Of a stretch of 64,000 nucleotides of DNA, positions 2,225-60,295 are shown piece by piece. The first letter of the stretch is position 1. Each line of letters opens with the position of its first letter. The DNA comes from Malacoraja senta. Its lineage: Eukaryota. The notes under the pieces were generated by a model. It ran no database searches and was not told the origin of the DNA. It saw only the letters and a list, made by a program, of their open reading frames with translations. The stretch lies in NCBI GenBank assembly GCA_038087875.1, contig CM075995.1:2482001-2546000 (forward strand), written 5' to 3'. Both the position numbers and the translations under genes were made by a program.

Positions 2225-2870
2225 TTACAACCCAATGGTATTAACGTTGAATTCTCCAAACTTAGCTGAGCTCCAAAACCCATTTGAGCCCTGAGCTCCA
2301 AAACCCATCACAGCCCCTCTACCTTCCCCATCCCCCTGTGCCCTACCTGGTCTTGCATAGATTTCTCCCCTCCACCTTTGTTCCTTCCTCTGGCTTCACA
2401 ATTTGCAGCTCTTCGATCCTTCCGTCTCACACCTCCTGTTTTAATCTTCGTCCTTTGTTCCAACCATCTGCTTATCAAAACCCCCCATCGCCTCAGAGGG
2501 TGGTGGAGGCAGGTTCTCTGGATGCTTTCAAGAGAGAGCTAGATAGGGCTCTTAAAAATAGCGGAGTCAAGGGATATGGGGAGAAAGCAGGAACGGGGTA
2601 CTGATTGGGGATGATCAGCCATGATCACATTGAATGGCGGTGCTGGCTCGAAGGGCCGAATGGCCTACTCCTGCACCTATTGTCTATTGTCTATTGCCTC
2701 TGTTCACTTATTACCTGCCAATGCTTTGCCCTGCCTCTAGTCTCTCCCAGCTTTCTTCCCGCATGCCCCCCTACAACCAGTCTGAAGAAGGGTCCTGACC
2801 CAAAATGTCACCGATCATGTTCTCCAGAGATGCTGTCTGACCCGCTGGGTTACTCCAGCACTCTGTATCG
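2225..2870 (+). mobile_element. Penelope-like 3' region interrupted by a CR1 3' end (~2490-2697)
   Basis: Degenerate PLE end motif ctgaagaagggtc..; inserted CR1 C-terminus FKRELDRAL..GYGEKAGTGY plus 3'UTR. Confidence 0.65.
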
Positions 2871-3105
2871 TTTTCAGCAATCTCCTCTGCCTGCACATTA
2901 TCTTTATTGCTCCATCCCCCTACATGTCTATGTGTTCCTCTTAAACACCACTATCACACCTGCTTCCACTACCAACCCTGGCAGCGTATTTCAGGCACTG
3001 AAACTCTCTGTAAATTCCTAGCAATGCTATGCAGCCAAAACCAAAATAGTATTGAAGATATTACCTGTGGATCTAGATTATCAGTGAGAGAGGATTCTCC
3101 ACTGA

Positions 3106-3778
3106 TCAAGTCAAGTCAAGTCAAGTCACTTTTACTTCTATAGCACATTTAAAAAACAACTCTCGTTGACCAAAGTGCTTTACATTGGTGGAGGTACTAA
3201 GGTTATACAACAGTGGTTCATGGATTAAGTACATACATAAATACATACATATAGCCCTCCCTCAGAGGACGTCAAGAAAGGCTTCAGAGTAAAGATGAGT
3301 TTCGTCTCGACTTAAAAGAGTCGATGGAGGGGGCAGTTCTGATGGGAAGAGGGATGCTGTTCCACAGTCTAGGAGCTGCAACCGCAAAGGCGCGGTCGCC
3401 CCCGAGCTTATGCCTAGACCGCGGATGTTCAGTAACCCAAGTCGGCCGATATGAGGACCTGGAGGTGGTGTGGTGTGTAAGCAGACTTTTGATGTAGGTG
3501 GGGGCAAGCCCGTTAAGGGCTTTGTAAACATAAAGAAGGATCTTGAAATTTATTTGGAACCGCACAGGGAGCCAGTGGAGAAAGCAGAATCGGGGTGATG
3601 TGGTCCCTTTTTCGGGTGCCCGTCAGGAGTCTCGCTGTGGCGTTTTGGACCAGTTGCAGGCGGACGGGGAAGATTGGCTGATGCCAGTGTTAAGGGAGTT
3701 GGAGTAATCGAGGCGGGAGGAGATAATGTGTGGATGATTTTTTCGAGGTCGTCAACCGGAGGAATTGTTTTATTTGAT
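3106..3778 (-). mobile_element. L2 LINE 3' fragment
   Basis: FKILLYVYKALNGLAP..GDRAFAVAAPRLWNSIP; (TTGAC)n tail. Confidence 0.85.
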
Positions 3779-3779
3779 T

Positions 3780-4240
3780 CTCTACATGATTCTCTACATC
3801 GGCGAGACCAAGCGCAGGCTCGGCGATTGTTTCGCTGAACACCTCTGCTCAGTCCGTCTTAACCGACCTGATCAGTGGTTCAGCACTTCAACTCCCCGCC
3901 CATTTCCAATCTGACCTTTCTGTCCTGGGCCTCCTCCATTGTCAGAGTGCGGCCCAGCGTAAATTGGAGGAACAGCACCTCATATTTCGCTTGGGTAGTT
4001 TACACCCCAGCGGTATGAACATTGACCTCTAACTTCAGATAGCCCTTGCTTTCTCTCTCCCTCCCCTTCCCCTTCCCAGTTCTCCCACCAATCTTAGTCT
4101 CTGCCTACATTCTATAATTATCCCGCCCCCTTCCCTGACAACAGTCTGAAGAAGGGTCTCGACTCGAAACGTTGCTCATTACATCTCTCCAGAGATGCTG
4201 CCTCACCCGCTGAGTTACTCCAGCATTTTGTGTCTACCTT
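3780..4240 (+). mobile_element. Penelope-like element 3' part
   Basis: YIGETKRRL GIY-YIG remnant followed by PLE end; near-direct repeat tagatta(t)(c/a)agtga at ~3074 and ~4240 brackets both the PLE and the nested L2. Confidence 0.75.
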
Positions 4241-4584
4241 AGATTATAAGTGAACTGTTTTGCACATGACTGATATTATTAATCAAGAAACAGTAAAAGG
4301 CATTGTAACCAATGTTCAATCAGTAAAAGTGCCTGACCCACTGAGTTGCTCCAGGATTTTGTGTCTATCTTCAATCAGTAAAACCTACATAATAACCATG
4401 TCTTGACATTTTATTAGCGTTTTTTATTGCTCTCTGTCTGCTGCATGCCTATTGCCCAACTTCCAGGGCACAACTGCACATAAAATTTAAATAAAGGGAA
4501 TTTGAGCATTTATTTATCGTTGTGTCATATTCTCAAGGCCAAAATAGTTAAAAGAATTGGAATGAATACAGATCCTGCCAGTTG

Positions 4585-5270
4585 CAACTCCCTAGTTAAC
4601 TCATCTCTTCCCACCCAAACCACCCCCTCCTCAGGTACATTCTCCTGCAACCGCAGGAGATGCAACACTTGTCCCTATACCTCCCCCCTCGACTCTGTCC
4701 AGGGCCTCTGACAGTCCCTTCAGGTTAGGCAGAGGTACACTTGCACCTCCTCCAACCTCATCTACTGTATCCGTTGTTCAGATGTGGACTCTTACACATC
4801 GGCGAGACCAAATGTAGACTGGGCAATCGTTTTGCTGAACACCTTCACTCAGTCCACCTGGACATACCCGATCTCCCAGTTGCCAAACACTTTAATCACC
4901 CTTCCCATTCCACACAGGCCTTTCTGTCCTCGGACTCCTCCAATGTTAGAGTGAGGCTAAACGCAAATTGGAGGAACAGCATCTCATATTTCGCTTGGGC
5001 AGTTTACAACTCAGGGGTATGAATATTGATTTCTCTAACTTCAAGTAACCCTGGCATTCCCTCTCTCCCCATCCCTCCCCCACCTAAGTCACACCAGGTT
5101 TTAGTTCTCACCTAGTAAACAGCTATCAATGGCCTGTTTCCTTTATCACTGTTACAATTTTGCTTATCTTTCATTCATTTGTTCTGTATCTCCCCACATC
5201 ATCGTCTATATCTCTCGTTTCCCTTTCCGTGACTTTCAGTCTGAAGAAGGGTCTCGACCCTAAACTTCAA
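4585..5270 (+). mobile_element. Penelope-like element fragment (GIY-YIG endonuclease region)
   Basis: Frameshifted GTFSCNRRRCNTCPY / NLIYCI..CGLLHIGETKCRLGNRFAEHL..PVAKHFN. Confidence 0.85.
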
Positions 5271-5483: not shown

Positions 5484-5703
5484 GAAAGAAAGAACTACAG
5501 ATGCTGGTAATACACAAAATGACACAAAATGCTGGAGTAACTCATTGAGTCAGACAGCATTCCTGGAGAACATGGATAGGTGATGTTTTGCATTGAGACC
5601 CTTCTATAGACTGAAGAAGGGTTTCGACCCGAAATGTCACCTACCCATGTTCTCCTGGGATGCTACCTGACCTGCTGAGTTACTCCAGCACTTGGTGTCT
5701 TCC
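5484..5703. mobile_element. Fold-back Penelope mini-element inserted into a CR1 fragment
   Basis: Inverted PLE ends; direct repeat tgcagagggtg on both sides. Confidence 0.7.
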
Positions 5704-5996
5704 TGCAGAGGGTGATGAATTTCTGGAATTCTCTACCCCACAGGGTTGTAGAGAGTTGATCATCGGGAATATTTCAAGAGGAAATAGATACATTCTTGAA
5801 AGATGAGGGAATCGTGGGCTATGGGAACAGGCTCAGAAGAGGGGTTGAGGCCTGGGACAGATCCGCCAGGATCATATGGAATGCAGGACAGACCTGAGGG
5901 ACTGTGTGACTTACTCCTGCTCCTGTCTTATGCTCTTATAAAAGCAATTTACCTTGCAGGCACCGTACACAGAATAGTGTGTGCCAGTTATAAAAG

Positions 5997-6619: not shown

Positions 6620-6812
6620 GAAGGAACTGCAGATGCTGGTTTACACCAAAGATAGACTAAATGCAGGAATAATAAGCGGGACAGGCAGCATCTCCGGAGA
6701 GAAGGAATGAGTGACGTTTCGGATCAAGACCCTTCTTCCCCGAAACGTCACCCATTCCTTCTCTCCAGAGATGCTGTCTGTCCCGCAGAGATACTCTAGC
6801 ATTTTGTGTCTC
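6620..6812. mobile_element. Fold-back Penelope mini-element
   Basis: gaaggaactgcagatgctgg... then an inverted copy ending tagcattttgtgtct. Confidence 0.7.
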
Positions 6813-6824
6813 TCTTGGGTGCGT

Positions 6825-9502: not shown

Positions 9503-10828
9503 TAAAGCCTAGATATTACTCCACTCTGCAGTTGGGACTGACAATCAAGAAGACTACCAATGCAGAATGCTTTCACTCTTGTGAACTTGTGAAAACTTTA
9601 GCATCTTCACAAGTTCACAAATTATAGGACTAGAATTAGGCCATTCGGCCCATCGAGTCTGCTCCACCATTCAATTATGGCTGATCTCTGCCACCTAATC
9701 CCATTTTCCTGCCTTCTCCCCGTTACCCTTGACACTCGTTCTAATCAAGAATTTGTCTATCTCTGCCTTAAAAATACCCACTGACTCTATATCTTTCTAC
9801 AGAATAGCATTTACATATGCAGAGAAATGCAAACTGGAAGTACTACCTACTACCCAACGGTACATTGAACTCTCCAATTTCAAATAAAATTACCCCCATC
9901 CACCCCTCTCTTTCCCCAGCTCCTGCCCCCACATCCGCTGTGTGATATATTTGTCCCATTACTCCCCGAACTCTGTACCTTACCTTCACTCGCCCTCTTC
10001 AGTCCATCTTCCACCTCTCCCTACTCCGTTCTTCTTTTATCTTCCTTCTTTCCCCTCTCCCTAGTCCCTTTCCACTTGGTTTGCATTTCACTCCTCCTCT
10101 CCCGTCTTTATCCACATCTTTTGTCTCCATTTCACCTCTAACCTCTGCCATTATATCTACCCACTTGCCAACCAACCCCAACCGTTTCAGGTCAGAACCC
10201 TTCTTTAGACCTTCTGAAGAAGGGTTCTGACCCAAAACGTCACCTATTCCTTTTCTCCAGAGATGCTGCCTGACCCAGTGAGTTACTCAAGAACCTTGTG
10301 TCTATCATAAGGAAGAGGAGTAGAATTAGGCCCATCAAGTCTACTCCGCCATGGCTGATTTATCGCTCCCTCTGAACCCCATTCTCCTGTCTTCTTCTCT
10401 GAACCCCATTCTCCCCATAACCTGTGACACCCGTACTAATCAAGAATCCTCCAGCACTTTGTTTTTTCTACTCAAGTTCCCAGCATCTGCAGTCTCTCAT
10501 GTCTCAATAGGGAATGTTGGTATTTCAGATGGAACCCAGCAATATTCTAAACATCTACTAAATTTTGCCTACCGACATTAAAAAATGCCAAACATCCAGA
10601 TTCTTCGGCAAGAGACAAAAATGTCTCACCGAAGTATTCCTGAATTTGAAAACTTTTCATTACTGGCCGCATAATTTGAAATTGTTATAATAAATGTGAT
10701 CATTAAAAGGGATACTAAAATACATAACCTTAAAGTAACGTTCACTGCCAGATGGAGTGCACGAGACATTATTACAGAAAGGCTCATCTCAAACCTTCTG
10801 ATTTAGGTAATCCAATGATTTGTGATGA

Positions 10829-12383
10829 ATGGTGAAAGAAAGAATGGGTCGACTGGGCTTATATTCACTGGAATTTAGAAGGATGAGAGGGGATCTTAAA
10901 GCCCTGTCCCACGGTACGAGTTCATTCCAAGAGCTCTCCCGAGTAAAAAAAAAAAGAAAACTCGTGGTAAGCACGGGGAATGAACGTAGCGGGTACGTTG
11001 GCAAAAACAGGAAAGCAGACTATTATCTAAATGGTGGCCGATTAGGAAATGGGGAGATGCAGCGAGACCTGGGTGTCATGGTACACCAGTCATTGAAAGT
11101 AGGCATGCAGGTGCAGCAGGCAGTGAAGAAAGCGAATGGTATGTTAGCTTTCATAGCAAAAGGATTTGAGTATAGGAGCAGGGAGGTTCTACTGCAGCTG
11201 TACAGGGTCTTGGTGAGACCACACCTGGAGTATTGCGTACAGTTTTGGTCTCCAAATCTGAGGAAGGACATTATAGCCATAGAGGGAGTGCAGAGAAGGT
11301 TCACCAGACTGATTCCTGGGATGTCAGGACTTTCATATGAAGAAAGACTGGATAGACTTGGCTTATACTCGCTAGAATTTAGGAGATTGAGAAGGGATCT
11401 TATAGAAACGTACAAAATTCTTATAGGGTTGGACAGGCTAGATGCAGGAAGATTGTTCCCGATGTTGGGGAAGTCCAGGACAAGGGGTCACAGCTTAAGG
11501 ATAAGGGGGAAATCCTTTAAGACCGAGATGAGGAAAAACTTTTTCACACAGAGAGTGGTGAATCTCTGGAACTCTCTGCCACAGAGGGTAGTTGAGGCCA
11601 GTTCATTGGCTATATTTAAGAGGGAGTTAGATGTGGACCTTGTGGCTAAACGGATCAGGGGGTATGGAGAGAAGGCAGGTATGGGATACTGAGTTGGATG
11701 ATCAGCCATGATCATATTGAATGGCGGTGCAGGCTCGAAGGGCCGAATGGCCTACTCCTGCACCTATTTTCTATGTATCTATGTATCTATATGTCGGAGC
11801 TCGGGGACGTCTCTTAGCGGCTCGTAACGCTAACGGCAGGTACTCGCGAAGACTCGTGAAGATTTTTCAACATGTTGAAAAATATCCACGAGAGCCCCGA
11901 GTACCGACGAGTGGCCATTACCATAAATCTCCGAGTTCGAATCAGGGCAAACTCGGGAGAGCTCTTGGAATGAACTCGTACCGTGGGACAGGGCTATTAT
12001 AGAAACATATACAATTCTTAAGGGATTGGACAAGCGAGGTACAGGAAAAAATGTTCCGCATGTTGGGGGAGTCCAGAACCGGGGGTCACAGTTTAAGAAT
12101 AAGGGGTAGGCCATTTAAGACTGAGATGAGGAAAAACTTTTTCACCCAGAGAGCTGTGAATCTGTGGAATTCTCTGCCACAGAAGGCAGTGGAGGCCAAT
12201 TCACTGGATGTTTTCAAGAGAGAGTTAGATATAGCTCTTAGGCCTAACGGAATCAAGGGATATGGGGAGAAAGCAGGAACGGGGTACTGATTTTGGATTA
12301 TCAGCCATGATCATATTGAATGGCAGTGCTGGCTCGAAGGGCCGAATGGCCTACTCCTGCACCTATTTTCTATGTTTCTATGT
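10829..12383 (+). mobile_element. Outer CR1 3' fragment split by a MITE, which itself contains a second CR1
   Basis: CR1 ggggatctta|tagaaacata is interrupted at 10899-11996. Confidence 0.85.
10899..11996. mobile_element. PIF/Harbinger-like MITE, subfamily B, with nested CR1 at ~10999-11790
   Basis: TIR GCCCTGTCCCACGGTACGAGTTCATTCCAAGAGCTCTCCCGAG at both ends; TTA TSD at 10896-10898 and 11997-11999. Confidence 0.85.
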
Positions 12384-13036
12384 TGCTGGAACCTTCAAAA
12401 AAACAATCTGGCCCAGGACCTCTCTCCTCTTTCGTTGATTGTTAAGAACCTATGGCAACCAGGCTCCCAAATGCATGTATGGCCACAGCATGAACGTCCT
12501 CTTACAGCCTACACCATTAAAAATTTAAACGCATATTCTAATATCTGATAACATTAACATTTTTCAGGCAGTAATTTCGCAGCAAGCTTAACAGATGGTA
12601 TTCCTGCTCTTTTCTGGTGACAGATGTATCCTGAGGGTGCAATAATATCTCATCTTTTCATTTTATATAGTCCCTGTTCGGTCTGTCTCCAGTTATATTT
12701 CCGACAGAAGCGCAACTGGAGAGGGCAGTGTAAACGTGAGGAATTACAGACTGGCTTGACCCAGCCGTTAAAAAGATTGAGAAACACGCTGTTAACTTGT
12801 ACCTTGATAAAGCAGCACACATACCCTTTTGGCAGCTTTGAATTGCTTCATTACTCAATTCAAATAATCAACGTGTCCTCAGATATAGTTAGCTTCTGCT
12901 GGTCTGCCAGCACCTGCAGTTTTATATAAAATGGTTTATGAATTAGTACTATAACTCATTTATTTGAACTATGTTGCTGTTACTATGGTTATTGCCATTT
13001 AGTGTACGTTGGAATAGCATTGATCAGGAACAACAT

Positions 13037-13162
13037 GGAAGAAGGGTCTCGGCCCAAAACGTTGCCTATTTCCTTCGCTCCATAGATGCTGCCTCACACG
13101 CTGAGTTGCTCCAGCATTTTTGCCTACCTTTGATTTTCCAGCATCTGTAGTTCCTTCTTAAA
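13037..13162 (+). mobile_element. Penelope terminal insertion
   Basis: 12-bp TSD caggaacaacat (13025-13036, 13163-13174). Confidence 0.8.
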
Positions 13163-13290
13163 CAGGAACAACATATTAGGCATTAGCCAGTTTTTTTTTG
13201 GATTAAAAGTGCAATCCAAAAGGAGCAGATATTACCAACAGATATCTGGCAAAGGAAAGATTTGGTAAATATTTTTATTGCTATCCTAAC

Positions 13291-16404: not shown

Positions 16405-17160
16405 TATAGACAATAGACAATAGGTGCAGGAGTAGGCCATTTGGCCCTTCGAGCCAGCACCGCCATTGAATGTGATCATGGCTGATCATCCCCAATCAGT
16501 ACCCCGTTCCTGCCTTCTCCCCATATCCCCTGACTCCGCTATTTTTAAGAGCCCTATCTAGCTCTCTCTTGAAAGCATCCAGAGAACCTGCCTCCACCGC
16601 CCTCTGAGGCAGAGAATTCCACAGACTCACCACTCTCTGTGAGAAAAAGTGTTTCCTCGTCTCCGTCCTAAATGGCTTACTCCTTATTCTTAAACTGTGA
16701 CCCCTGGTTCTGGACTCCCCCAACATCGGGAACATGTTTCCTGCCTCTAGCGTGTTCAAGCCCTTAACAATCTTATATGTTTCAATGAGATCTCCTCTCA
16801 TCCTTCTAAACTCCAGAGTGTACAAGCCCAGCTGCTCCATTCTCTCAGCCTATGACAGTCCCGCCATCCCGGGAATTAACCTTGTGAACCTGCGCTGCAC
16901 TCCGTCAATAGCAAGAATGTCCTTCCTCAAATTAGGGGACCAAAACAGCACACAATATTCCAGGTGTGGTCTCACTAGGGCTCTGTACAACTGCAGAAGG
17001 ACGTCTTTGCTCCTATATTCGATTCCTCTTGTTATAAAAGCCAACATGGCATTCGCTTTCTTCACTGCCCGCTGTACCTGCATGCTTACTTTCATAGACT
17101 ACAAGGACCCCCAGATCCCGTTGTACTTCCCCTTTTCCCAACTTGACACCATTTAGATAG
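16405..17160 (-). mobile_element. CR1 LINE 3' fragment
   Basis: LYRALVRPHLEYCV..RGHSLRI..GYGEKAGTGY. Confidence 0.9.
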
Positions 17161-17864: not shown

Positions 17865-18250
17865 ATTTTGTTTATTGTTACGTGTACCGAGCTACAGTGA
17901 AAAGTTGTTTTTGCGTGCTAACCAGTCAGCGGAAGGACAAATCACAATTTCAATCGAGCCATCCAGTGTACAAATACATAATAAGTGAATAACATTCAGT
18001 GCAAGATAAAGTAAAGTCCGATCAAATATATTCTGAGTCTGCAATTACGTAGATAGCAGTTCAGCACTGCTCTCTGGTTGTGGTAGGATGGTTCAGTTGC
18101 CTGATAAACAGCTGGGAAGAAACTGTCCCTGAATCTGGAGGGGTGCGTTTTCACACTTCTATACCTTTTGCCGGATGGGAGTGGGGAGAAGAGGGAGTGG
18201 CCAGGGTGCAACTGCTGGCCTTGCCGAAGCAGCGTGAGGTATAAATGGAA
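17865..18250 (-). mobile_element. Rex1/Babar LINE 3' fragment
   Basis: HPGHSLFSPLPSGKRYRS..SRFRDSFFPAV; tail ggtacacgtaacaataaa. Confidence 0.8.
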
Positions 18251-18267
18251 TATTTCTATACTTTTTT

Positions 18268-19340
18268 GGTAAGTTTCAATGAGGTACCCCCTCAACCTTC
18301 TAAACTCCAGTGAGAAGAGGCCCAGTGCTGTCCAACGCTCATCATATGCTAACCCACTCATTCCTGGAATCATTCTTGTAAACCTCCTCTGGACCCTCTC
18401 CAGAGCCAGCACATCCATCTTCAGATATGGGGCCCAAATTTGCATACAGTACTCCAAATGTGGCCTGACCAGTGCCTTATAGAGCCTCAGCATTACATCT
18501 CTGTTTTTGTATTCCAGTACTCTTGATATAAATGCTAGCATTGAATTTGACCTCCTTACCACCGATTCGACTTGCAAATTAACTTTTTGGGAGTCCTGCA
18601 CCAGGACTCCGAAGTCCCTTTGCACCTCCGGTTCCTGGATTCTCTCTCCATTTAGAAAATAATCTACACCTTTATTCTTATTACCAAAATGCATGACTCG
18701 GCACTTTGCTACACTAAACTTCATCTGCCACTTCTCTGCCCACTCTCCTAACCTGTCCAAGTCCTTCTGCAGAGTCCTTCCTTCATCTACACTGCCTGCC
18801 CCTCCACCTATCTTAGCATCATCTGCAAACTTGGTCACAAAGCCTTCAATCCCCTTATCCAAATCATTAATATACAACGTGAAGAGAAGCGGCCCCCGAC
18901 TCTTGCGGAACTCCACTAGTCACTGGCAGCCAACCTGTAAAAGCGCCTTTTATTGCGACTCTTTGCCTTCTGCCATACAACCAACTCGCTATCCATGCTA
19001 GTATCTTCCCTTCAATACCATTGGCTCATCTTCCCTAGCAGCCTGACATGCGGCACCTTATCGAAGGCCTGAAATTCTAGGTGAACAACATCTACATTCT
19101 CCCCTCTGTCTGTCCTGCTATTAACATCCGCAAAGAACTCCAGCAGATTCATCAGGCAAGATCTTCCCTTCACAAAACCATGCTGACTTTGGCCTATTTT
19201 ATCGTGAATTTCCAAGTACTGCGTAACATCATTCTTTATAATTGACCCTAAAATTTTACCAACCACCGAAGTCAGGCTAACCGGCCTATAGTTTCCGCTC
19301 TTCTACTGCGCTCCCTTCTTGTACAGCGGGGTGATATTCC
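18268..19340 (-). mobile_element. CR1 LINE RT fragment
   Basis: QHGFVKGRSCL..AFDKVPH; GPLLFTLYINDL..KFADD. Confidence 0.9.
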
Positions 19341-23468: not shown

Positions 23469-23981
23469 TTTAGTTTAGTTTAGTCTAGTTCAGAGACACA
23501 GCGCAGAAACAGGCCCTTCGGTCTACCGAGTCCACGCCGAACAACAATCACCCTGTACACTAGCGCTATCCTACACACTAGGGACAATTTACAATTTTTA
23601 CTGAAGCCAATTAACCTACAAACCTATAAGTCTTTAACCTGTTTAAGAAGGAGCTGCAGATGCTGGAAAATCGAAGGTAGACAAAAATGCTGGAGGAACT
23701 CAGCGGGTGAGGCAGCATCTATGGAGCGAAGGAAATAGGCAACGTTTCGGGCCGAAACGTTGCCTATTTCCTTCGCTCCATAGATGCTGCCTCACCCGCT
23801 GAGCTTCTCCAGTCTTTAACCTGTACGTCTTTGTAGAGTGGGAGGAAACCGGAGCACCTGGAGAAACACTACGAGGTCACGGGTAGAACGTACAAACTTC
23901 GTACTGACATCACCCGTAGTCAGGATCGAACCCGGCTCACTGTCGCTGTAAGGCAGCAACCCTACCGCTGCACCACCGTGC
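23469..23981 (-). mobile_element. HE1-like V-SINE interrupted by a fold-back Penelope mini-element (23643-23810)
   Basis: 14-bp TSD agtctttaacctgt (23629-23642, 23811-23824); near-perfect ~60-bp inverted arms centred ~23750. Confidence 0.85.
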
Positions 23982-24732: not shown

Positions 24733-24989
24733 ATTTGTTAACTTTGTGATGTCTTACATTGTAAAGTAATCAAATAGAATTTGGAAGTGAGATCGAAGTG
24801 CGTCAGACAAATGGATAAAATTAGTTCAAGGAGTAGATGTTAAGTAATGGCTTAACAGGACTGAGAGGCAGAGAAACTGAATGTCCTTGAGCAAGATTGA
24901 GTGATGATACTGTGACTGAATGCTCAGAATTATCAGTGGCGGACAATGGGAACTATTTCCTGCGTCTTATCAACATTATTATCAACATC

Positions 24990-25962
24990 TATATATATAT
25001 TAATGATTTAGATGAGGGAATGAAATGTGACATCTCCAAGTTTGCGGTTGACACAAAGCTGGGTGGCAGTGTGAGTTGCGATGAGGATGCTATGAGGCTG
25101 CAGGGTGACTTGGATAGGTTGGGTGAGTGGGCAGATACATGGCAGATGCAGTATAATGTGGATAAATGTGAGGTTATCCACTTTGGTGGCAAGAACATGA
25201 AGGCAGATTATTATCTGAATCGTGTGCGATTAGGAAAAGGTGAGGTGCAACGAGGCCTGGGTGTGCTTGTACATCAGTCACTGAAAGTAAGCATGCAGGT
25301 ACAGCAGGCAGTGAAGAAAGCTAATGGCATGTTGGCCTTCATTGCGAGAGGATTTGAGTTTAGGAGCAAGGAGGTCCTACTGCAGTTGTACAGGGCCCTG
25401 GTGAGACCGCAACTGGAGTATTGTGTGCAATTTTGGTCTCCTAATTTGAGGAGGAACATTATTGCTATTGAGGGAGTGCAGCGTAGGTTCACCAGGTTAA
25501 TTTCCGGGATGGCGGGACTGACAAGTGATGAAAGAATGGGTCGACTGGGCTTATATTCATTGAAATTTAGAAGGATGAGAGAGGATCTTATAGAAACATA
25601 TAAAATAATAAAAAGGACTGGATAGGTTAGATGCAGGAAAAATGTTCCCGATGGTGGGGGAGTCCAGAACTAGGGGTCACAGTTTAAGAATAAGAGGTAG
25701 GCCATTTAGGACTGAGATGAGGAAAAACCTCTTCACCCAGAGAGTTGTGAATCTGTGGAATTCTCTGCCACAGAAGGCAGTGGAGGCCAATTCACTGGAT
25801 GGTTTCAAGAGAGAGTAAAATTTAGTTCTTGGGGCTAAAGTAATCAAGGGATATGGGGAAAAAGCAGGAATGGGGTACTGATTGGGGATGATCAGCCATG
25901 ATCATATTGAATGGCTCGAAGGGCCGAATGGCCTACTCCTGCACCATATTTCTATATTTCTA
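24990..25962 (+). mobile_element. CR1 LINE 3' ~1 kb
   Basis: YINDLDEG..KFAVDTKL..LVRPQLEYCVQFW plus 3'UTR; frameshift near 25610. Confidence 0.9.
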
Positions 25963-35385: not shown

Positions 35386-35461
35386 TAAAAATTAAAAAAA
35401 CATTTAAAAAGATGCTGACAGATAGTATCAGTGACTAATTGAAACGTTCCCACTCTTTTTG

Positions 35462-35665
35462 TGTAGGAAGGAGCTGCAGATGCTGGTTTGAACTGAAGAT
35501 AGACACTGAAAACTGGAGTAACTCAGCGGGACAGGCAGCATCTGGAGAGAAGGAATGGGTGACGTTTCAGGTCGAGACCCTTCTTTCTCGACCCGAAACG
35601 TCACCCATTCCTTCTCTCCGGAGATGCTGCCTGTCCCGCTGAGTTACTCCAGCATTCTATGTCTA
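35462..35665. mobile_element. Fold-back Penelope mini-element
   Basis: ctggagtaactcagcgggacaggcagcatct.. / ..agatgctgcctgtcccgctgagttactccag. Confidence 0.8.
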
Positions 35666-36507
35666 TTCCCACTCTTTTTATTCTCCCTGTAGCAGTACTG
35701 ATAACTGGGTCCCTATCACATCGAGGACCCGCGTCGCGGACTGAGAACCTGCCCGGAAGGCCTGGCGCTCCCGCCCAGAGTGGACAGAGCGTGGTAAGCA
35801 GACCAGCTATGGGACGGAGCGTGGTGCCTCGATGGTGCAGTGGGCTGTTGCAGCAGCAGCCTGGGGCTCGGCTGGACCGGGCGCCGCTCCAAGAGGCCGA
35901 GCATGTGGACCGCACGTGGCCTACAGCGGCGGAGCGGCAGCGGACGACACCCCCCCCCCCCCAAGGACTACGCTTGGCTAGGCCGACCCTGCATTGCCAC
36001 CAGGACAATGTGCCTTCATGGTCAGATCAAGATCCCTGCACTTACAACAACTGGGACTTGAAAATGGCACCAAATTGGTGAATCTGTACACTGATTCACT
36101 GCTATACACTTGTACCGTATCTGAGATGCTTATCTAAGATGTATCCAAGTGCTTATGTCCCGTGGTACTTGTACTGATCTGTAAATAAAAATGAATTTCA
36201 CTGTACCTCGGTACATGTGACAAATAATGTATCACGGACACATTGAATACCATTGAACCGTTCTTACGAGAGATCAATTCAAATTGCTGGAATCTGAAGC
36301 CCTCCTTGCTATATCACTTCCATGGTGCCAGGTTAACAGTCTCATTCCCCCCCCCCCCCCCCAATCTCAGCCATTATAGGGATGCTTTAAATGGTTTTGC
36401 ATGTACATTACATGGAATAGCAGCAATTGTTTTTTTTTCATTTTCAGTTTAATTCTGATATCGATATTGAGGACATTTCATTCCAGATATTGAGGAAAGT
36501 GTGCGCA

Positions 36508-36945: not shown

Positions 36946-37640
36946 GCCCACACCCTCTAGTCCAGGCACAGTTGGCTGCATTAAAAATAGACTTGCATTG
37001 TCCAAGCATAAATCATTGCTGGTGGTATTTTAAAATAATATTCCATGGATGTTCGAAGGCAGTGATAAATTTAGAAAGAAAGCCAAACAATACGCTATTT
37101 TTACTTATAACACAGGAATCTTTTAAATTGATACATACATAGCACCCTTTCTGAATGCAGAGATTAGGAAGCAGGCTTGGTGCAGGGAAGAAGAGGAGGA
37201 TTTGCTTCAGTTGAAGTGGTGGAAAGTTTTTTTTACAGTTAATCTGTGTCGACCTGCAATCAGGGTAGAGGCTCCAAAACTAGTTTCAGAGAGTCAAGAG
37301 TGTTTTATTGTCATATGTCCCAGACAGAACAATGAAATTCTTACTTGTAGCAGCACAACAGAATATATAAACATTGTACTCTGTAAATAATACAATAAAC
37401 AAGGAAAAAAATTCACACACACACATACATATAAAAACAAATAAACAATAAGAGTGCAAAGACAAAACCACTGTGTAGTTCAGAGCTTATTTGGAGGTTG
37501 TAGTGTTTGATAGCCTGATGGCTGTTGGAAACCTAGATGTGTTGGAAGGAACTGTAGATGCTGGTTAACACCGAAGATAGAGACAAAATGCTGGAGTAAC
37601 TCAGCGGGACAGGCAGCATCTCTGGATAGAAGGAATGGGT

Positions 37641-37668
37641 GACGTTTCGGGTCGAGACCCTTCTTCAG
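37641..37668 (-). ncRNA. Minimal hammerhead ribozyme core in a Penelope end, on the CDKAL1-sense strand
   Basis: Reverse complement is CTGAAGAAGGGTCTCGACCCGAAACGTC; stem I is poorly supported in this copy. Confidence 0.45.
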
Positions 37669-39233
37669 AATCTGAAGGGTTTTGGCTGAGAACCTGGATG
37701 TTACAGTTTTCAGGCTCAGTTTAGATTATTGTCAAGAAGGAACTGCAGATGCTGGAAAATCGAAGGTAGACAAAATTGCTGGAGAAACTCAGCGGGTGCG
37801 GCAGCATCTATGGAGCGAAGGAAATAGGCAACGTTTCGGGCCGAAACCCTTCTTAGATTATTGTCACATGTACTGTGGCACAGTGAAAAGCTTTTTGCTG
37901 CGTCCTATCCAGTCAGCGGAAAGACTATACAATCGAGCCGTCAACAGTGTACAGATACAGATAAAGGGAATAACATGTGCAAGATAAAGTATAGTAAAGT
38001 CGTTAAAGATAGTCCGAGGATCACCAATGAGGTAGATGGAAGCTCAGGACTGTTCTCTAGTTGTCGATAGGATGGTTCAGTTGCCTGATGACAGCTGGGA
38101 AGAAAATGTCCCTGAATTTGGAGGTGTGCGTTTTCACACTTCTGTATCTCTTGCCCGATGGGAGATGGGAGAGGGGAGAAGAAGGAGTGACCGGGGTAAG
38201 ATTCATCCTTGATTAATCATTTCAAACTATTCACTTCAAATTTACAGGTATATATTAAGATAGGGATTTAGTAAATTGGATTTAATTTTACTTCAAACAG
38301 AAAAAAAATGTGTACTTATGAAAGTTTGTTGCAGATCAAATTGACTTTCCATTGGATTATTATTTCAGAATGAGGAGAACTGAAAATCTGCTCAAATAAG
38401 TTCCCAAATGGGAAAATGAATTTAATTCCCAAAAAACCTTGAACTTTACAAAGTCATAATGTGCAAACATCAACGTAAATGTCAAAAAGAAATGAACCGT
38501 TCGTGTTCAATATATAGCATTTATACAGGGCTTGGAAGTATAAGCTGGTTTAATTTCAAACCCTTCACAAACAAGTGAAAGCACTGTGTGGGAGGCGAAA
38601 GGGATTGTGCAAATGTAAAGAACTTCATTGCCTTACAGCCTTTCCTCGTATTTGTGTCAATTATTAGACCGTGGAGAGACTCGATATCTTTTCACCTCAA
38701 AACTAACTTAGCTCGGAATTTTGTGATACGGACAGAAAAAGGCAGCTGGAAACGAATCATAAATGATGCACCAGGACATCATCAATGGTAACTCTCAAAG
38801 TGCAAGTGACAATGTTTCTGAGGAATACTGAAATAGCCAGAAGGTACACTTCCAAATCGTACTGCTCCAAAATGGGTGATATAACGTTTGGAGTTGCGCA
38901 ACGCTGTCTTGTAACTCACTGCAGTACATTGTTCTCGGTAGAAAACAACCTTTTCGTCTGAAAATTTTATAGCCCGAGAGACCAATTTGAATAAAAATAA
39001 TGGCAATGTAATTGCCCTAATAAATTTCCATGGGCAGCAAATGCTCTTAAATGACTCCAAACATGCATCCATGGTTGAACATCAGGTATTAATCACAGGC
39101 CCTTGTCAAGAAACATAAAATCTCACCGCTTGATACTGTAAATAAATTCCAGGTTTGTTCAAAAGAACAATAGCAATTCTGCATCTTGAAGCGAACACAG
39201 TGATTAATCAGAAGATTAAACTTCAACATTGCC

Positions 39234-40711: not shown

Positions 40712-41620
40712 CTCCGTTTTAACTCACCAGGGCCCCAGTTCACGCCTCCATTTTAACTCACCAGGGCCCCAGTTCACATCTCCATTTTAACTCACCAGGG
40801 CCCCAGTTCACGCCTCCATTTTAACTCACCAGGGCCCCAGTTCACATCTCCATTTTAACTCACCAGGGCCCCAGTTCACGCCTCCATTTTAACTCACCAG
40901 GGCCCCAGTTCACGCCTCCATTTTAACTCACCAGGGCCCCAGTTCACGCCTCCATTTTAACTCACCAGGGCCCCAGTTCACACCTCCATTTTAACTCACC
41001 AGGGCCCCAGTTCACATCTCCATTTTAACTCACCAGGGCCCCAGTTCACGCCTCCATTTTAACTCACCAGGGCCCCAATTCACGTCTCCAATTTAACTCA
41101 CCAGGGCCCCAGTTCACGTCTCCATTTTAACTCACCAGGGCCCCAGTTCACACCTCCATTTTAACTCACCAGGGCCCCAGTTCACGCCTCCATTTTAACT
41201 CACCAGGGCCCCAGTTCACGCCTCCATTTTAACTCACCAGGGCCCCAGTTCACATCTCCATTTTAACTCACCAGGGCCCCAGTTCACGCCTCCATTTTAA
41301 CTCACCAGTGCCCCAATTCACGTCTCCAATTTAACTCACCAGGGCCCCAGTTCACGTCTCCATTTTAACTCACCAGGGCCCCAGTTCACGTCTCCATTTT
41401 AACTCACCAGGGCCCCAGTTCACGTCTCCATTTTAACTCACCAGGGCCCCAGTTCACGTCTCCATTTAAACTCACCAGGGCCCCAGTTCACGTCTCCATT
41501 TTAACTCACCAGGGCCCCAGTTCACGGCTCCATTTTAACTCACCAGGGCTCCAGTTCACGCCTCCATTTTAACACTAGAGCCCCAATTCATGCCTCCATT
41601 TTAACTCACCAGGGCCCTGA
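40712..41620. repeat. 34-bp minisatellite, ~27 units, degenerate tail to ~41720
   Basis: Unit CTCCATTTTAACTCACCAGGGCCCCAGTTCAC(GC/AT/AC/GT/GG); period 34 (e.g. 40746, 40780). Confidence 0.95.
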
Positions 41621-41951: not shown

Positions 41952-42014
41952 CTTGTGATCATACGGGGTGTACGACTGAAACAGCTGAGACAGCTCCCTG
42001 GTTCTTTGCTTTTT
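41952..42014 (-). CDS. CDKAL1: Internal coding exon (63 nt, phase 0-0) of CDKAL1, the threonylcarbamoyladenosine tRNA methylthiotransferase (radical SAM/TRAM)
   Basis: Minus strand reads ttttttgttccag|AAAAAGCAA...GATCACAAG|gtaaga, with canonical acceptor and donor. It translates to KKQRTRELSQLFQSYTPYDHK, matching the recalled human CDKAL1 segment KKQRTKDLSRVFHSYSPYDHK just before the TRAM domain. Neighbouring exons were not found in the window. Confidence 0.92.
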
Positions 42015-42585: not shown

Positions 42586-43065
42586 AATGTTTAAGAAAGA
42601 ACTGCAGAAGCTGGAAAAATCGAAGGTAGACACAATTTCGGTCGAGACTCACTCTGGCCATGGAGGAGGCCCAGGACTCCACTCAGTTCGCATTAACCAA
42701 CCTGATCTCCCGGTGGATCAGCACTTTAACTCCCCCTCCCATTCCGCATCCGACCTTTCTGTCCTGGGCCTTCTCCATGGCCAGAGTGAGTCCCACCGCA
42801 ATTGGAGGAGCAGCATCTCATATTTGCTTGGGCAGTTTACACCCCAGTGGTATGAACATTGACTTCTCCAATTTCAGGTAGTCCTTGCTTTCTCCCCTTC
42901 TCAGCTCTCCCCCAGCCTACTGTCTCCGCCTCTTCCTTTCTTCTTCCTGCCCCCCCTCCCCCACATCAGTCTGAAGAAGGGTCACGACCCGAAACGTCAC
43001 CTATTCCTTCGCTCCATAGATGCTGTCTCACCCGCTGAGTTTCTGCAGCATTTTTGTCTACCTTC
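42586..43065 (+). mobile_element. Penelope element: 5' inverted end, GIY-YIG remnant and 3' end
   Basis: 15-bp TSD tgagagtggaaacta (42571-42585, 43066-43080). Confidence 0.85.
42971..42998 (+). ncRNA. Minimal hammerhead ribozyme core (Penelope-associated)
   Basis: CTGAAGA-A-GGGT(CACG)ACCC-GAAA-CGTC. Confidence 0.6.
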
Positions 43066-45323: not shown

Positions 45324-47264
45324 TTATTGTGCTGGAGATGAGTTTTGGTTTAGTTTATTGAGTTTAGTTTATTGTCACGTGTACTGAGGTACGGTGAAAA
45401 GCTTCTGTCGCATGCTAACCAGTCAGCGGCAAGACATGATTACAATCTGCCATCCACAGTGTGCAAATACACAATAAATGGAATAACTCGAATCACATTT
45501 AGTGCAAGATCAAAGATAGTCCGTGTGAAGTCTGATCAAAGATAGTCCGTGGGTCTCCAATGAGGTAGATAGTAGCTCAGGACTGCAGATAGAACAGGAC
45601 TTCAAAAGGACAAAAAAGTAATGATGATAAAGGAAACAGGCCATTGTTAGCTGTTTATTAGGTGAGAATGAGAAACTGGTACGACTTGGGTGGGAGAGTG
45701 ATGGAGAGAGAGAGGGAATGCAGGAATGACGTGAAAGTAGAGAAATCAAAACTCATACCAATGGGTTGTAAGCTGCCCAAGCAAAATATGAGATGTTGTT
45801 CCTCCAATTTGCCTCACTCTGACAATAGAGGAGGCCTAGGGCAGAAAGACAATGGAGGAGGCCTAGGACAGAAATGGCCTGTTTCCTTTATCATCGTTAC
45901 TTTTTTGCATATCTTTCATTCATTTGTTCTATATCTCTCTACGTCACTGTGTATATCTCTCATTTCCCTTTCCCATGACTCTGTCTGAAGAAGGGCCTCG
46001 ACCCGAAACATCACCCGTTCCTTCTCTCCAGCTGAGAGAGCCTGTCCCACATTTATATCTTTAGTTACTCCAGTATTTTGTCTTTCTTCGATATAAACCA
46101 GCGTCAGCAGTTCCTTCCTACACAGTGTACAGAGTCGCCAGTTTGGCGCCATTTGCAAGTCCCAGTTGTTGTAAGTTCAGGGATCTTGACCTGACCATGA
46201 ATGGGCTGTTACCTGATTATGATCCGTTACTGATCATAATCAGTTACAAGCAGACATCTTGTAAACGTATGAGTTAAGCATCAGACTCAACTGGTAATCA
46301 CCCATTGATCAATCACCTTCTTGGAACTGTTTTTGTTTCACGGCTTACACCCAGATGTTTTTTTTATTACAGCCGAACGCACATTTAAAGAGCAAAAAGC
46401 AACATGTTTTAAGTTGCATTGTCATGAATCATGTAATGCATGTCACTAATCCAAATATCCATTAGTGTCAATGCCTCCATTAAATATTTGATGGGATATA
46501 AACTATTAAATGCAGTGAGTCATAACTCCAAATATTGGCAGTTCCACAGCATAATGATCACAGTCAACATTAATTCATTACGAACACAATTTCACCTTTT
46601 CATATTATTTACCAATTTATTCTCATTTGGCCATCATCAGGAGGGTCAAAAATTATTACTCGTAACTAAATGCCCTTGAGAAGGTGATGGAGATATATGC
46701 CTTCTTAAACCACTGCAGTCTTTACAGAGGTGCCGCGCAGCAGAGGCCTTCCCAAGGTGCCGCAGCCATCACGCACGCCTCAAGACTTGTCGGTTGGTGG
46801 GACCAGGGACCCGCCCGTAGGCTCGTCAGTCGCTGGGACCCGCCAGATGATTCGTCGGTTGGCGGGACCCCCCCGAAGGTTCACGGGGCCCGCACAAAGG
46901 CTCGGTCGTCGTCGGGGCCGGTAACCCACCCGAAGGCTCATTGAACAGTGTAATCGGGAAGGAGCTGGAGACGTCATGCGGTAGGAGGGTGAACCAGTGT
47001 GATGCCTCCACGCCTTCAGGGTCGGCTGCAGGAGGCACACACCCGGGACACAAAGACGGCCGCGCGACGAGAGGAGAGGGATGTCGGTTCGCGGGAGCTA
47101 CTCCAGTACATCGAGCGCACAGGCCACCCGACAATGCAATTTGAATAACGGTGCCAAAAATGGCGTTCCAGCAGACGTTGGAAATGCAAAAAATATTTCA
47201 ATGTACAGTTGCTTATGTGACAAATAAAGCACTATTGAAGTATTGACCTATCTTTCTCATGAAA

Positions 47265-47745
47265 GATCTGTATATCAGCGAGACCAAGCGCAGGCTCGGC
47301 GATCGTTTCGCTGAACACCTCCGCTCGGTCTGCCTTAAACTACCTGATCTCCCGGTTGCTCAGCACTTTAACTCCCCCTCCCATTCCCAATCTGACCTTT
47401 CTGTCCTGGGCCTCCTCCATCGTCAGAGTGAACCCAGCGCAAATTGGAGGAACAGCACCTCATATTTCGCTTGAGTAGCTTACACCCCAGCGGTATTAAC
47501 ATTGACTTCTCTAACTTCAAATTGCCCTCGCTGCAATTCTCTCTCCATCCCCTACCCCGTCCCAGTTCTCCCACCAGTCTTACTGTCTCTGACTACATTC
47601 TATCTTTGTCCCGCCCACTCCCCTGACATCAGTCTGAAGAAGGGTCTCGACCTGAAACGTCACCCATTTCTTCTCTCCAGAGATGTTACTCCAGCATTTT
47701 GTGTCTACCTTCAATTTAAACCAGCACCTGCAGTTCTTTCCTAAA
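47265..47745 (+). mobile_element. Penelope 3' fragment
   Basis: LYISETKRRLGDRFAEHLRSV..PVAQHFNSPSH plus end motif. Confidence 0.85.
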
Positions 47746-47754
47746 CACTGTGAA

Positions 47755-52955: not shown

Positions 52956-53005
52956 CATCCACTGGCCAGAAACTCAACTGAGCTAGTTACTTGAATGCTA
53001 TGAAT

Positions 53006-53290: not shown

Positions 53291-53770
53291 CAAAAAAAAA
53301 CTAGACTACAAGAGCAAGTCAGAAGTCCTGCAGTGAGAAACTCATCTGCTGACAGAAAAGGAGAACTTACTATCACAACGTTTAGAAAACATTTAGACAG
53401 GTACGTACATAGATAGTACAGGTTTAGACGGCTATGGGCTAAACACAGGCAGGTGGGACCAGTGTACTTTAGGCATGTTGGTCAGCAGGGGCAATTTGGA
53501 CCGAGGGGCCTGCTTCCATGCTGTATCTCTATCAAAGCCTTTCATCATAGACAAGACATATATATGAAGTGTGATGGAATACTGTCTACTTATTTGACTA
53601 ACAATCATGAAGCTCAATACCATGAGTATAAACTTTTGAGTATTAATTAGTCATTTCAAATAGCCCTTGCTTTCCCTCTCTCCATCCCCACCCCCTTCCC
53701 AGTTCTCCCACCAGTCTCACTGTCCCCGACTACATTCTATCTCTGTCCTGCCCACTCCCCTGACATCAGT

Positions 53771-53798
53771 CTGAAGAAGGGTCTCGACCCGAAACGTC
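53771..53798 (+). ncRNA. Minimal hammerhead ribozyme core (Penelope-associated)
   Basis: agt-CTGAAGA-A-GGGT(CTCG)ACCC-GAAA-CGTC-act; 3-bp stem I is possible. Confidence 0.65.
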
Positions 53799-54663
53799 AC
53801 TCTTTCCTTCTCTCCAGAGATGCTGCCTGACCCGCTGAGTCCAGCATTTCGTGTCTACCATGAATATAAAGACAGCCGAATCATTAACCTATATGTTCAT
53901 CACTCCACCAATACCTAATGACTGCAGTATCATTTAAAAAATGCACTACATTTATTTTCTTGCTTGCTTCTTCTTCTTCTTCTTAGGCAGTCCCTCGGAT
54001 ATGGGTAGGAAGGAACTGCAGATATTGTTTAAACCCTCGGATATGGGGATGACATGCAACTAGTGAGAGGACAAAACTCTCATCTCAGGAATCAACCAAG
54101 TGAATCTCTTTTGCAATGCCTTCAACACCAGCATATCCTTTCTTCAATAAGGAGACCAAAGCTGCACCAAAACCAAACCAATTCCAGGTGTGACCTCTCC
54201 TGTACAATTATAATAATACTTCCCATTTTCCAAACACCAAACCTCTTGCAAGAGACCATTTGCTAACAACAAGTAGCACCTGCCCGACAACTGTTTGTAA
54301 AGTCGCAGATCCCTCAATACTTTGCTCGATTGCAATCTTGCTCCATTTAGATAAGTCTCATTTAATTCTTATTTCTGAAGCGGACGACCACGATTTTCCA
54401 CATTAAACTCCAATTGCCAAGTTTTCACTCACTCGTTCAACCCACCTAAACCCTGTCATGGAGTCACACCATCGTCATTACAATATACCCTCCCATTTAT
54501 TTCCGTGTCATTGGCAAAGTGGAAGATGGAGTGGTAAGGCAGCAACTCCACCGCTGCACCACTGTGCTGCCCATTTGGGAAGTGGTTGCCCTGTCTAGTC
54601 TGCGAGCACCTCACAAACCTGCAGCCTCCACCACCAAGGTTGAAAACCTCAGTGAACACAGTG

Positions 54664-57952: not shown

Positions 57953-58125
57953 TAACACTAATTTACACTCACACTCACAATTAATCTGCAAACCTGTACG
58001 CCTTTGGAGTGTGGGAAGAAACCGAAGATATCGGAGAAAACCCACGGAGAGAACATACAAACTCCGTACAGACAGCACCCGTAGTCGGGATCGAACCTGG
58101 ATCTCTGGTGCTGCAAGCGGTGTAA

Positions 58126-58454
58126 TAGCCCTGTCCCACGGTGCAAATTCATTCAAGAGCTCTCCTGAGTTTTAAAAAAATCAAACTCGTGGTAAGCACG
58201 GAGAATGAACGTAGCGGGTACGTCGGAGCTCGGGGACGTCTCTTAGCGGCTCGTAACGCTAACGGCGGGTACTCGGGAAGACTCGCTAACGGCAGGTAAG
58301 CACGGGAAGACTCGTGAAGATTTTTCAACACGTTGAAAAATGTCCACGAGAGCCCCGAGTACCGACGAGTGGCCTTTACCGTAAATCTCCGAGTTTGAAT
58401 CAGGGCAAACTCGGTAGAGCTCTTGGAATGAACTCGTACCGAGGGACAGGGCTG
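58126..58454. mobile_element. PIF/Harbinger-like MITE, subfamily B (uninterrupted)
   Basis: TIR gccctgtcccacggtgcaaattcattcaagagctc / gagctcttggaatgaactcgtaccgagggacagggc; flanks TAA and TTA. Confidence 0.82.
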
Positions 58455-58969
58455 TTAGGCAGCAACTCTACCACTGCGCCACCGTGCTGCTTGTTCTGTC
58501 GCTGACTCCCATATTCTCATCTGCTTGGTGCCAAAGCTCTGAAACTTACAGAGTCAAGGAGTTGTAGAGTTATACAGCACAGGCACAAGCTCTTTGGTCC
58601 AACTCGTCCATGCCGAGCAAGATGCCTGATCTAAGCTAGTTCCATTTGCTCATGTTTGGCACATATTCCTCCGAACCTTCACTATCCATTTACCAAATGT
58701 CTATTAAAAGTTATGATCATACCTGCCTCTATTACTTCCTCTAGCAGTTTGTTCCACGTACCCACCATATTCTTGTTCCACCTCTTCTCCTCTTGTCACC
58801 TGCTGAAGGCATTATCTCCTTGACCAAGCTTTTAGTCATTAACTATAATGTCTTTTCTTGTTCTTGAATGCCAATTTTACTTTAGGTAATGATTCCCGTA
58901 AGGAGAAAACCACGAGAGGTTTTACTCGATTAAGGATGAAGAATGTTGGCCTAGAAATTCAACCACCAT

Positions 58970-59268
58970 AGTGTGGCGCAGCAGTAGAGTTGCTGCCTTA
59001 CAGCGCCAGAGACCCAGGTTCAATCCTGACTACGGGTGCTGGCGGTGTGGAGTAGGTACGCTCTCCTTGTGACCTCGTGGGCTTTCTTCAGGTGCTCTGG
59101 ATTCCTCCCACATTCCAAAGACACACAGGGCTGTAACTCAATTGGCTCCTGTGAATTGTAAATTGTCCCTAGTGTGTAGGATAGTGCTAGGGTACGGGTT
59201 GATCGCTGGTCAGCACGGACTCGGTGGGCCGAAGGGTCTATTTCCACGCTGTATCACCAAAGTCTAAA
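58970..59268 (+). mobile_element. HE1-like V-SINE
   Basis: Full length. Confidence 0.8.
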
Positions 59269-60169
59269 GTACGTTGTTTTTTATTTATGACCCAAGGTTT
59301 GATAGATGCGTCAAATGAATAGCTGCACTTCTAGACATGCACAATATTTAGTAGAAGTTTGAATGATACCCCCTGGAGCAGAGAATAAATACACACACAT
59401 GTACTATCAGACCTGTTGTTTTCAGGTAAGTTCATTCCAAACGTGGACGACCATTCATTTCCTCAAAAAGGACACAAAGCGCTGGAGTAACTCAGCGGGT
59501 CAGGAAGCATCTCTGGAGAACATGGATAGGTGACATCTCGGGATTGGACCCTTCAGGCTTTCTATCACTTCAACAGTGGATGCTGGTCCTTCAATTGTCC
59601 ATAAAGATCAGCCTTGGGATTGTGGAGGTTGCTAGACATGGGCAAGGCAGAATCAGAGACATCTCTGGCAATGGCAGATGAGGTCAATGAGATTAATGCC
59701 CATTTTAAACAGGCAAAGGTCTGCTGAGGTGCACATCCCCATATGTCCCATGTATCTAGTGTATGGAGTGCCACAGACAGCTGTGGAGGCCGTCAACGGA
59801 TAGCTTTAAGGCCGAGATTGACAGATTCTTGATTAGTAAGGGTGTCAGGGGTTAAGGGGAGAAGGCATGAGAATGGGGTTAAGAGGATCAGCCATGATTG
59901 AATGGTGGAGTAGACTTGAAGGGCCGAATGGCCTGATTCTGGCCCTAGAACTGATGAACTATCTCCACTACAGAAGATCTCTCTTCTTGAGGGTAAATTC
60001 TCAGTAAGCAGCTGGTCCAAAGGTGTCCCTGGACGGGCTTTTAAATCATGCACCAATCAACAGCCCAAAGTCTACAAATGTCGTCAACCAAACACTTTAA
60101 CAGTCTTCTCTTTCTGTCTGCTTTAATGAAACCTCCATCAATTCATCATTTCCCAAAAAAAGTAAATGA

Positions 60170-60295
60170 AGAAGGGTCTCGACCCAAAACGTCACCCATT
60201 CCTTCTTGCCAGAGATGCTGCCTGTCCCGCTGAGTCACTCCAGCATTTTGTGTCTATCTTTGGTGTAAACCAGCATCTGCAGTTCCTTCCTACAC
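60170..60295 (+). mobile_element. Penelope terminal insertion
   Basis: 12-bp TSD aaaagtaaatga (60158-60169, 60296-60307). Confidence 0.8.

Follow-up and report, generated by a model that had tools for sequence, protein, structure and literature searches.

Penelope-like elements (PLEs) are known to carry minimal hammerhead ribozymes that have an extra base between positions 9 and 10.1, a G10.1-C11.1 pair and a palindromic 15.2-16.2 segment (PMC4209133). In the same source a helix I of 2 bp is reported for Drosophila virilis, and the published minimal hammerheads cleave poorly, dimers included. The hammerhead of a related element, Poseidon of Anolis (PAc; Frangieh et al. 2024, PMC11167929), cleaves only with the element protein, whereby uncleaved RNA is the main template and insertion in vitro does not require cleavage. 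We analysed 64,000 nucleotides (nt) of Malacoraja senta DNA (GCA_038087875.1, contig CM075995.1, positions 2,482,001 to 2,546,000, forward strand; hereafter the window), in which a first-pass annotation made from the letters alone had proposed dispersed minimal hammerhead cores in Penelope termini. Taken together, our analysis supports with good confidence that the motif lies in the pseudo-long terminal repeat (pLTR) of a high-copy PLE, that it matches the minimal type I hammerhead, whose cleavage is likely weak and takes place in the dimer or together with the element protein, and that the window copies are truncated, mostly broken and likely inert.

Occurrence of the motif

The 28-base motif is present at all twelve positions named in the annotation, and at ≤ 4 mismatches 17 matches were found on both strands of the window, compared to 0 in 100 base shuffles. 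Exact copies are located at 42971, 53771 and 37641-37668 (minus strand), copies with a single mismatch at 4146, 5611 and 47634, and copies with two to three mismatches at 2782, 5241, 10214, 13036, 45985 and 60166. The proposed grading into intact and near-intact copies needs some correction. While 42971 and 53771 are indeed complete, the minus strand copy at 37641 combines an intact core with a helix I of 1 bp and is thus incomplete; among the near-intact ones 4146 is in fact complete and 5611 has no ACGU palindrome. A separately written descriptor of the minimal hammerhead structure returned four window sites (4146, 42971, 47634 and 53771, all on the plus strand) and none in 200 shuffles.

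The very high copy number suggested by the annotation was confirmed. In the 1.94-Gb genome the exact motif occurs 22,279 + 21,869 = 44,148 times, the reversed control pattern 0 times. Across 444 kb of DNA taken irrespective of the motif (unselected DNA), 196 copies were located by means of their 3' part.

Anatomy of the putative hammerhead

The motif consists of C3UGAAGA9, an extra A, a helix II of 4 bp, GAAA, CGU and finally C or U at the cleavage position. The well-sampled subfamilies show in their majority sequence the core boxes C3UGANGA9 and G12AAA together with U16.1-H17; among 294 copies, N17 is a C in 76% and a U in 24%. Helix II is closed by G10.1-C11.1 next to the extra base after A9, and among 304 copies, which were selected for matching the motif, its four pairs are retained in 89-96%. 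A palindromic ACGU (15.1-16.1 segment) stands where helix III would be. The majority sequences of five subfamilies, two of which (D and E) are based on 2 and 5 copies, are 93% alike within the motif, 47% in the 35 nt upstream and 79% in the 40 nt downstream, and the core boxes are common to all. Judged by these letters, the predicted structure fits the published anatomy of minimal type I hammerheads, as the annotation had stated. By analogy to the described elements, the motif would also be active as a ribozyme.

Several observations weigh against such an activity. Helix I comprises 2 bp (kept in 96% and 94% of 141 long copies), followed by A-C and C-Y mismatches at pairs 3-4 and by two further pairs (5-6, kept in 90% and 79%). 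No two-sided compensatory change was seen in any helix within this one genome and its closely related subfamilies. Variation in the helices is solely one-sided (U-A/U-G, at 10.4-11.4 and 2.1-1.1); the covariation of stems I and II which the annotation had named as a check hence did not appear. The predicted minimum-energy fold differs from a hammerhead, with the purine-rich core pairing with downstream pyrimidines or with the 5' arm of the partner, and the youngest family carries GUU, not GUC. Among recorded RNA data, none was listed as containing this sequence. In a polyA RNA-seq run of a related organism (6% of the run, from a library type that rarely keeps ends), the matches listed showed no accumulation of read ends, either at the cleavage site or at the transcript start proposed below. 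Finally, an Rfam scan of the window gave no match to a hammerhead family at E ≤ 5. Rfam hammerhead models include helix III, which is absent from the minimal form. The Rfam matches obtained are to microRNA models only, on fold-back insertions and with scores far under gathering.

The carrier element

A GIY-YIG C-terminus is located directly 5' of five window copies (2782, 4146, 5241, 42971 and 47634), and whole elements of the order hammerhead-open reading frame (ORF)-hammerhead exist elsewhere in the genome. The assignment to Penelope termini is therefore upheld. In fetched DNA the motif follows a GIY-YIG C-terminus within 450 nt in 110/124 cases, a set that is enriched and gives no unbiased rate, many of the loci having been retrieved by way of the motif itself or of the DNA 5' of it. 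It is placed ~80-220 nt (up to ~410) past the GIY-YIG stop and precedes the ORF of the following unit by 163 nt.

Searching the genome at the protein level retrieved many long open frames. Two of 20 stretches around the longest frames show the order motif-ORF-motif and have the motif in both pLTRs, the period being 3,996 nt in L095 and 3,987 nt in L100. Both are 99.6% alike over 4.4 kb, therefore the family is young. The ORF has a length of 1,235 amino acids (aa) and matches RVT_1 (E 6.6e-6) and GIY-YIG (E 0.0016), both below the Pfam curated cut-offs. Its linker between reverse transcriptase (RT) and endonuclease (EN) shows the pattern CxxxxCxxC (CNRKRCNTC in P0001), and a Zn-finger-like CX2-5CxxC linker at this position is a mark of Neptune (PMC8557442). 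Further hallmarks of PLEs are present, namely pLTRs derived from partial tandems, inverted truncated copies and a 30-40-bp tail. By its linker motif, the young carrier can be classed as a Neptune-type PLE. In L100 (5044-5271), a long insert rich in Pro, Ser and Thr, which contains internal 78-nt repeats, separates the N-terminal part of the ORF from the RT.

Most copies of the motif are decayed. Complete motifs amount to 3/17 in the window (4146, 42971 and 53771) and to 13 of the 144 matches in the 444 kb of unselected DNA. At CpG positions 10-16% of the above 304 copies differ per motif site, at other sites 1-4%; these CpG-focused substitutions include the catalytic G12, as in unconstrained methylated DNA. 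The dispersed window copies are 5'-truncated insertions, mostly broken and likely inert.

Ends of the copies

Among the 196 unselected copies, 70 have their 5' end at -6 to 0 from C3, corresponding to 0.089 per base versus 0.002-0.029 in other bins (missing subfamily references could inflate the -4 to -8 classes). A single copy starts at the cleavage site (+26 to +28) and 168 read past it, which fits uncleaved RNA as template. Cleavage products were considered as templates and rejected, as the 196 copies display no 5' pile-up at +1.

The edge shows in the young family as well, where 7,402 copies still have the 11 nt upstream and at least 6,840 others lack them. About half of the young copies are stumps of 95 or 130 bases with 5' ends 1-3 bases ahead of the core at TCAGTCT. 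We inspected 90 of the first 100 listed stumps. The 1-3 bases before C3 match the element in 63/90, and after removal of 15 inverted and 4 long copies the element-like letters are strongly enriched from -1 to -3 and near background at -4. The 3' ends cluster near +93 (+93/94 from C3; 63/90) and near +129 (25/90), in keeping with the pair of internal start sites that the Anolis element has. A target duplication of 9-28 bp ends ≤ 15 nt from C3 in 41/90 stumps, with intervening letters that vary between copies; in an earlier set shuffled pairs gave 1% versus 27/163 observed. As to a possible cap-derived extra G at the junctions, one extra base is present in 4 of these 41 stumps (A, G, G, T), and G precedes GT in 12/22 non-inverted ones. 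A tail is as frequent in stumps (25/88) as in long copies (11/39, p=1.0) and therefore gives no hint as to the repeat that served as template. The 5' edge falls on the A of TCAGTCT, which fits the initiator consensus. An Inr-like (initiator-like) TCACT has been described in a rotifer pLTR (PMC3846280).

A tandem array

At L196 (G000:C1:28,900,500-28,909,000, minus strand) we found 13 near-identical units of 384 bp with a complete motif in each. The unit corresponds to the young element with nearly all of the ORF deleted. An 11-bp target duplication flanks the whole array, and the surroundings are other coding-like repeat DNA. The unit junction exists at one locus genome-wide, hence we see a single birth here and reject the 384-bp unit as a family. 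The array agrees with the definition of non-LTR retrozymes (Li, Clavereau, Pollet 2026, bioRxiv 10.64898/2026.07.22.740005), which applies at L196 only, no tandem units with complete hammerhead being found in the window. Both one insertion from a circular template and a later tandem expansion fit its origin. A different, short tandem of 73 bp, comprising the ORF start, is located next to an inverted truncated end at L197 (G000:C1 ~48.310 Mb).

The CDKAL1-like host gene

On the minus strand, 23 kb beyond the right end of the window, an exon matches TIGR01578 below the cut-off; it precedes a 63-bp exon with proper borders at 42014-41952 (minus). We take the gene to be CDKAL1, and the motifs used to locate the 63-bp exon are likewise our assumption. 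Later exons were found neither in the window nor in the 60 kb to its left nor via the TRAM family. The CDKAL1-like exons are out of order on the contig (G000:C19:1,935,359-2,569,395), the same strand carrying earlier ones 0.5 Mb further left, which suggests a scaffolding error or a rearrangement.

Copies between the identified exons show no strand preference (35 sense versus 31 antisense, n=66, p=0.71; 22 versus 20 for core-containing copies). All three complete window copies are antisense to the gene, and 0/6 motif matches on the minus strand are complete. The annotation had placed some cores on the CDKAL1 pre-mRNA strand. Minus strand copies do exist, but those at 37641 and 37830 are located 3' of the last exon found, and membership in the pre-mRNA is unsupported. 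An effect of the repeats on the gene is unsupported as well.

Origin of the 5' edge and role of the motif

For the 5' edge we tentatively favour a run-off at the RNA 5' end. In analogy to the Anolis element (PMC11167929), reverse transcription would start at two internal sites and uncleaved RNA would be copied straight through the cleavage site; the stumps would be complementary DNAs (cDNAs) whose synthesis ran off the template at its 5' end, which would lie at the initiator-like TCA(+1)GTCT of the upstream repeat. Alternatively, a 3' splice site (pyrimidine tract and CAG/U) or bound proteins might stall the RT, comparable to D. virilis, where the Penelope intron ends just 5' of the hammerhead (PMC4209133, PMC2377424). 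All five subfamilies indeed retain CAGT behind a pyrimidine tract, and in L181/L182 the end of the 5' untranslated region (UTR) is joined to the motif as a donor-to-acceptor splice over the ORF would do. However, the element-like letters reach -3 and thereby pass the AG/U junction, and the letters between duplication and C3 vary in the 41/90 stumps with target duplication, therefore no exon is shared there. Moreover, junctions of the spliced type give 3 matches (2 loci) against 1,200 unspliced, and an RNA joint into the CAG/U site is absent among the matches listed from the RNA-seq run mentioned above. We consider a stall at this site unlikely. Removal of the ORF as a single intron (AAG/GTATG at the start codon to CAG/U) is, with these 3 junctions against 1,200, unsupported as main route. 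The match at L183 is a target duplication, and the AAG/GT-to-CAG/U junction of L181/L182, which occurs twice, in inverted copies, at a single locus (G000:C4 ~79.902 Mb), might stem from a rare spliced template lacking the ORF or from a chance 2-bp microhomology. Somewhat less likely still, the edge might be made at the DNA level by cDNA ends that anneal or snap back at the near-palindrome TCAG-T-CTGA. Fold-backs make up 27/70 of the edge copies, other fold-backs are centred on helix II and on ACGU, and palindromic junctions are described for PLEs (PMC3846280). Yet 43/70 edge copies and 75/90 young stumps are not inverted and have the same edge. We tentatively keep run-off at the RNA 5' end ahead of both. 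A wider account, in which the genome itself would map the replication cycle of the element, is less likely than not. Thousands of 95/130-base stumps would be strong-stop-like cDNAs that began at two internal starts and ended where the RNA template ends, at an initiator coinciding with the base of helix I, so that the transcript would open with the hammerhead. The 13 x 384-bp array with its one target duplication would have been made in one go, by rolling-circle reverse transcription of an RNA circle produced by the hammerhead, and would be a retrozyme at birth.

As to the motif itself, the very short helix I, the missing two-sided covariation and the competing folds might mean that the 28-mer is kept for another role, such as a promoter or an RT-binding structure, and that catalysis was lost in this lineage; insertion of the Anolis element in vitro without cleavage (PMC11167929) would be in line with this. 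Well-sampled subfamilies, however, differ solely at sites which a hammerhead tolerates, namely loop 2, 11.4 (A/G), N17 (C/U) and 1.1 (A/G), making a loss of catalysis improbable in our view. It is more improbable still that dispersed copies act on host transcripts, for instance by cutting or destabilising the CDKAL1-like pre-mRNA as dimers. The density of 196 copies in 444 kb, three complete sense copies in intronic DNA outside the window (L199, L209 and L211) and the abundance of the repeat on both strands in polyA RNA of the related organism would allow for it. On the other hand, sense copies are not depleted, few unselected matches and no minus strand match of the window are complete (see above), and minimal hammerheads are poor even as dimers (PMC4209133) or depend on a protein (PMC11167929). 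We retain the reading as a minimal hammerhead of a PLE that likely cleaves weakly.

Features of the window

The features of the window are summarised in Table 1.

Table 1. Copies of the PLE and context features in the window.
Position	Strand	Feature	Remark
2006..2869	+	old PLE 3' end: GIY-YIG remnant 2006-2263, interrupted 3' UTR, decayed hammerhead 2782-2809	
3786..4240	+	PLE 3' end: GIY-YIG C-terminus 3786-4029, pyrimidine-rich 3' UTR, complete minimal hammerhead 4146-4173 (GUU), tail	
4616..5268	+	PLE 3' end with endonuclease remnant 4616-5042; hammerhead 5241-5268, GAAA box broken	
5521..5704	.	fold-back of two PLE ends, head to head; motif 5611-5638 (+) without ACGU	
6649..6816	.	fold-back pair of PLE ends; truncated core 6713-6740 (-)	
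10181..10306	.	decayed head-to-head cores 10181-10208 (-) and 10214-10241 (+)	
13036..13164	+	130-base stump including the tail; core lacks its start; 12-bp target duplication	sequence inspected directly
23640..23812	.	fold-back insertion with helix II as centre; 13-bp target duplication	
35460..35669	.	fold-back insertion with truncated core; 14-bp target duplication	
37538..37669	-	stump; catalytic core 37641-37668 intact, helix I of 1 bp	
37734..37857	-	stump; CUGA box short of one base; 14-bp target duplication	copy at 37641 is 189 nt away
41952..42014	-	63-bp exon of the CDKAL1-like gene, AG...GT borders	context, not element
42677..43065	+	PLE 3' end: GIY-YIG remnant, 3' UTR, complete minimal hammerhead 42971-42998 (GUC)	
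45733..46128	.	inverted GIY-YIG fragment 45733-45810 (-) next to decayed hammerhead 45985-46012 (+)	
47268..47747	+	PLE 3' end: GIY-YIG C-terminus, 3' UTR, hammerhead 47634-47661 with G-U replacing G10.1-C11.1	
53655..53870	+	PLE 3' UTR with complete minimal hammerhead 53771-53798 (GUC)	
60166..60296	+	130-base stump; C3 and G12 lost; 12-bp target duplication	
61430..61516	-	decayed stump	

Apart from the PLE, the window contains a 34-bp minisatellite (40712-41617, 26.7 copies, 94% matches) ~330 nt 3' of the exon at 41952. Fragments of a second retroelement, resembling a long interspersed element (LINE), are located at 10829-11692, 16431-17100, 17996-18919, 24891-25625 and 62423-63226; two tested frames match RVT_1 above the cut-off. 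A dispersed repeat similar to short interspersed elements (SINEs) with a CTAAA-type tail is abundant (families D8, D12, D13, D15 and D17), which we take to resemble the HE1 SINE of sharks and rays.

Comparison with known systems

Publications describing this PLE family, or a 5' edge located at the hammerhead, were not found in a literature search that did not extend to most subscription papers. Shark or skate were not found in supplement file 2 (term search) or in the covered main text of PMC4209133. The point where the stumps start may mark where the element RNA begins. The family appears to be a recently active vertebrate one. Its long open frames, its junctions in the tens of thousands and the fresh tandem array offer a natural test set for how PLE reverse transcription starts and ends and for the role of the hammerhead.

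The minimal hammerheads of PLEs (PMC4209133) share with the present motif the core boxes, the unpaired base at 9/10.1, G10.1-C11.1 and ACGU in place of helix III, as well as one copy per pLTR and mostly single, dispersed copies. In contrast, Schistosoma mansoni shows 4-5 bp in helix I and 7-8 bp in helix II, compared to 2 (plus 2 beyond an internal loop) and 4 here, and the 44,148 exact copies face ~4,000 in coelacanth and ~9,000 in Xenopus, which were counted by another search method. Neptune PLEs (Craig et al. 2021, PMC8557442) likewise possess a single ORF with RT, CX2-5CxxC linker and C-terminal GIY-YIG, partial-tandem pLTRs, inverted 5'-truncated copies and the 30-40-bp tail; the ORF of 1,235 aa with its long Pro/Ser/Thr-rich insert differs from them.

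With PAc (PMC11167929) the family has in common that two preferred 3' ends define the tail, that copies read through the cleavage site and that no RNA reads were seen ending there. The PAc ORF, however, begins within the hammerhead, whereas here it begins 163 nt after C3, and the pile-up of 5' ends observed here is not described for PAc in the covered part of that paper. Like the non-LTR retrozymes (bioRxiv 10.64898/2026.07.22.740005), L196 is a pLTR-derived tandem with one motif per unit; its unit of 384 bp compares to an average of 363 bp in the one chondrichthyan of the preprint. The window copies are single, unlike the tandem retrozymes. Taken together, the arrangement of a ribozyme in Penelope has been known since 2014, and the present family is an expected, very high-copy example of it.

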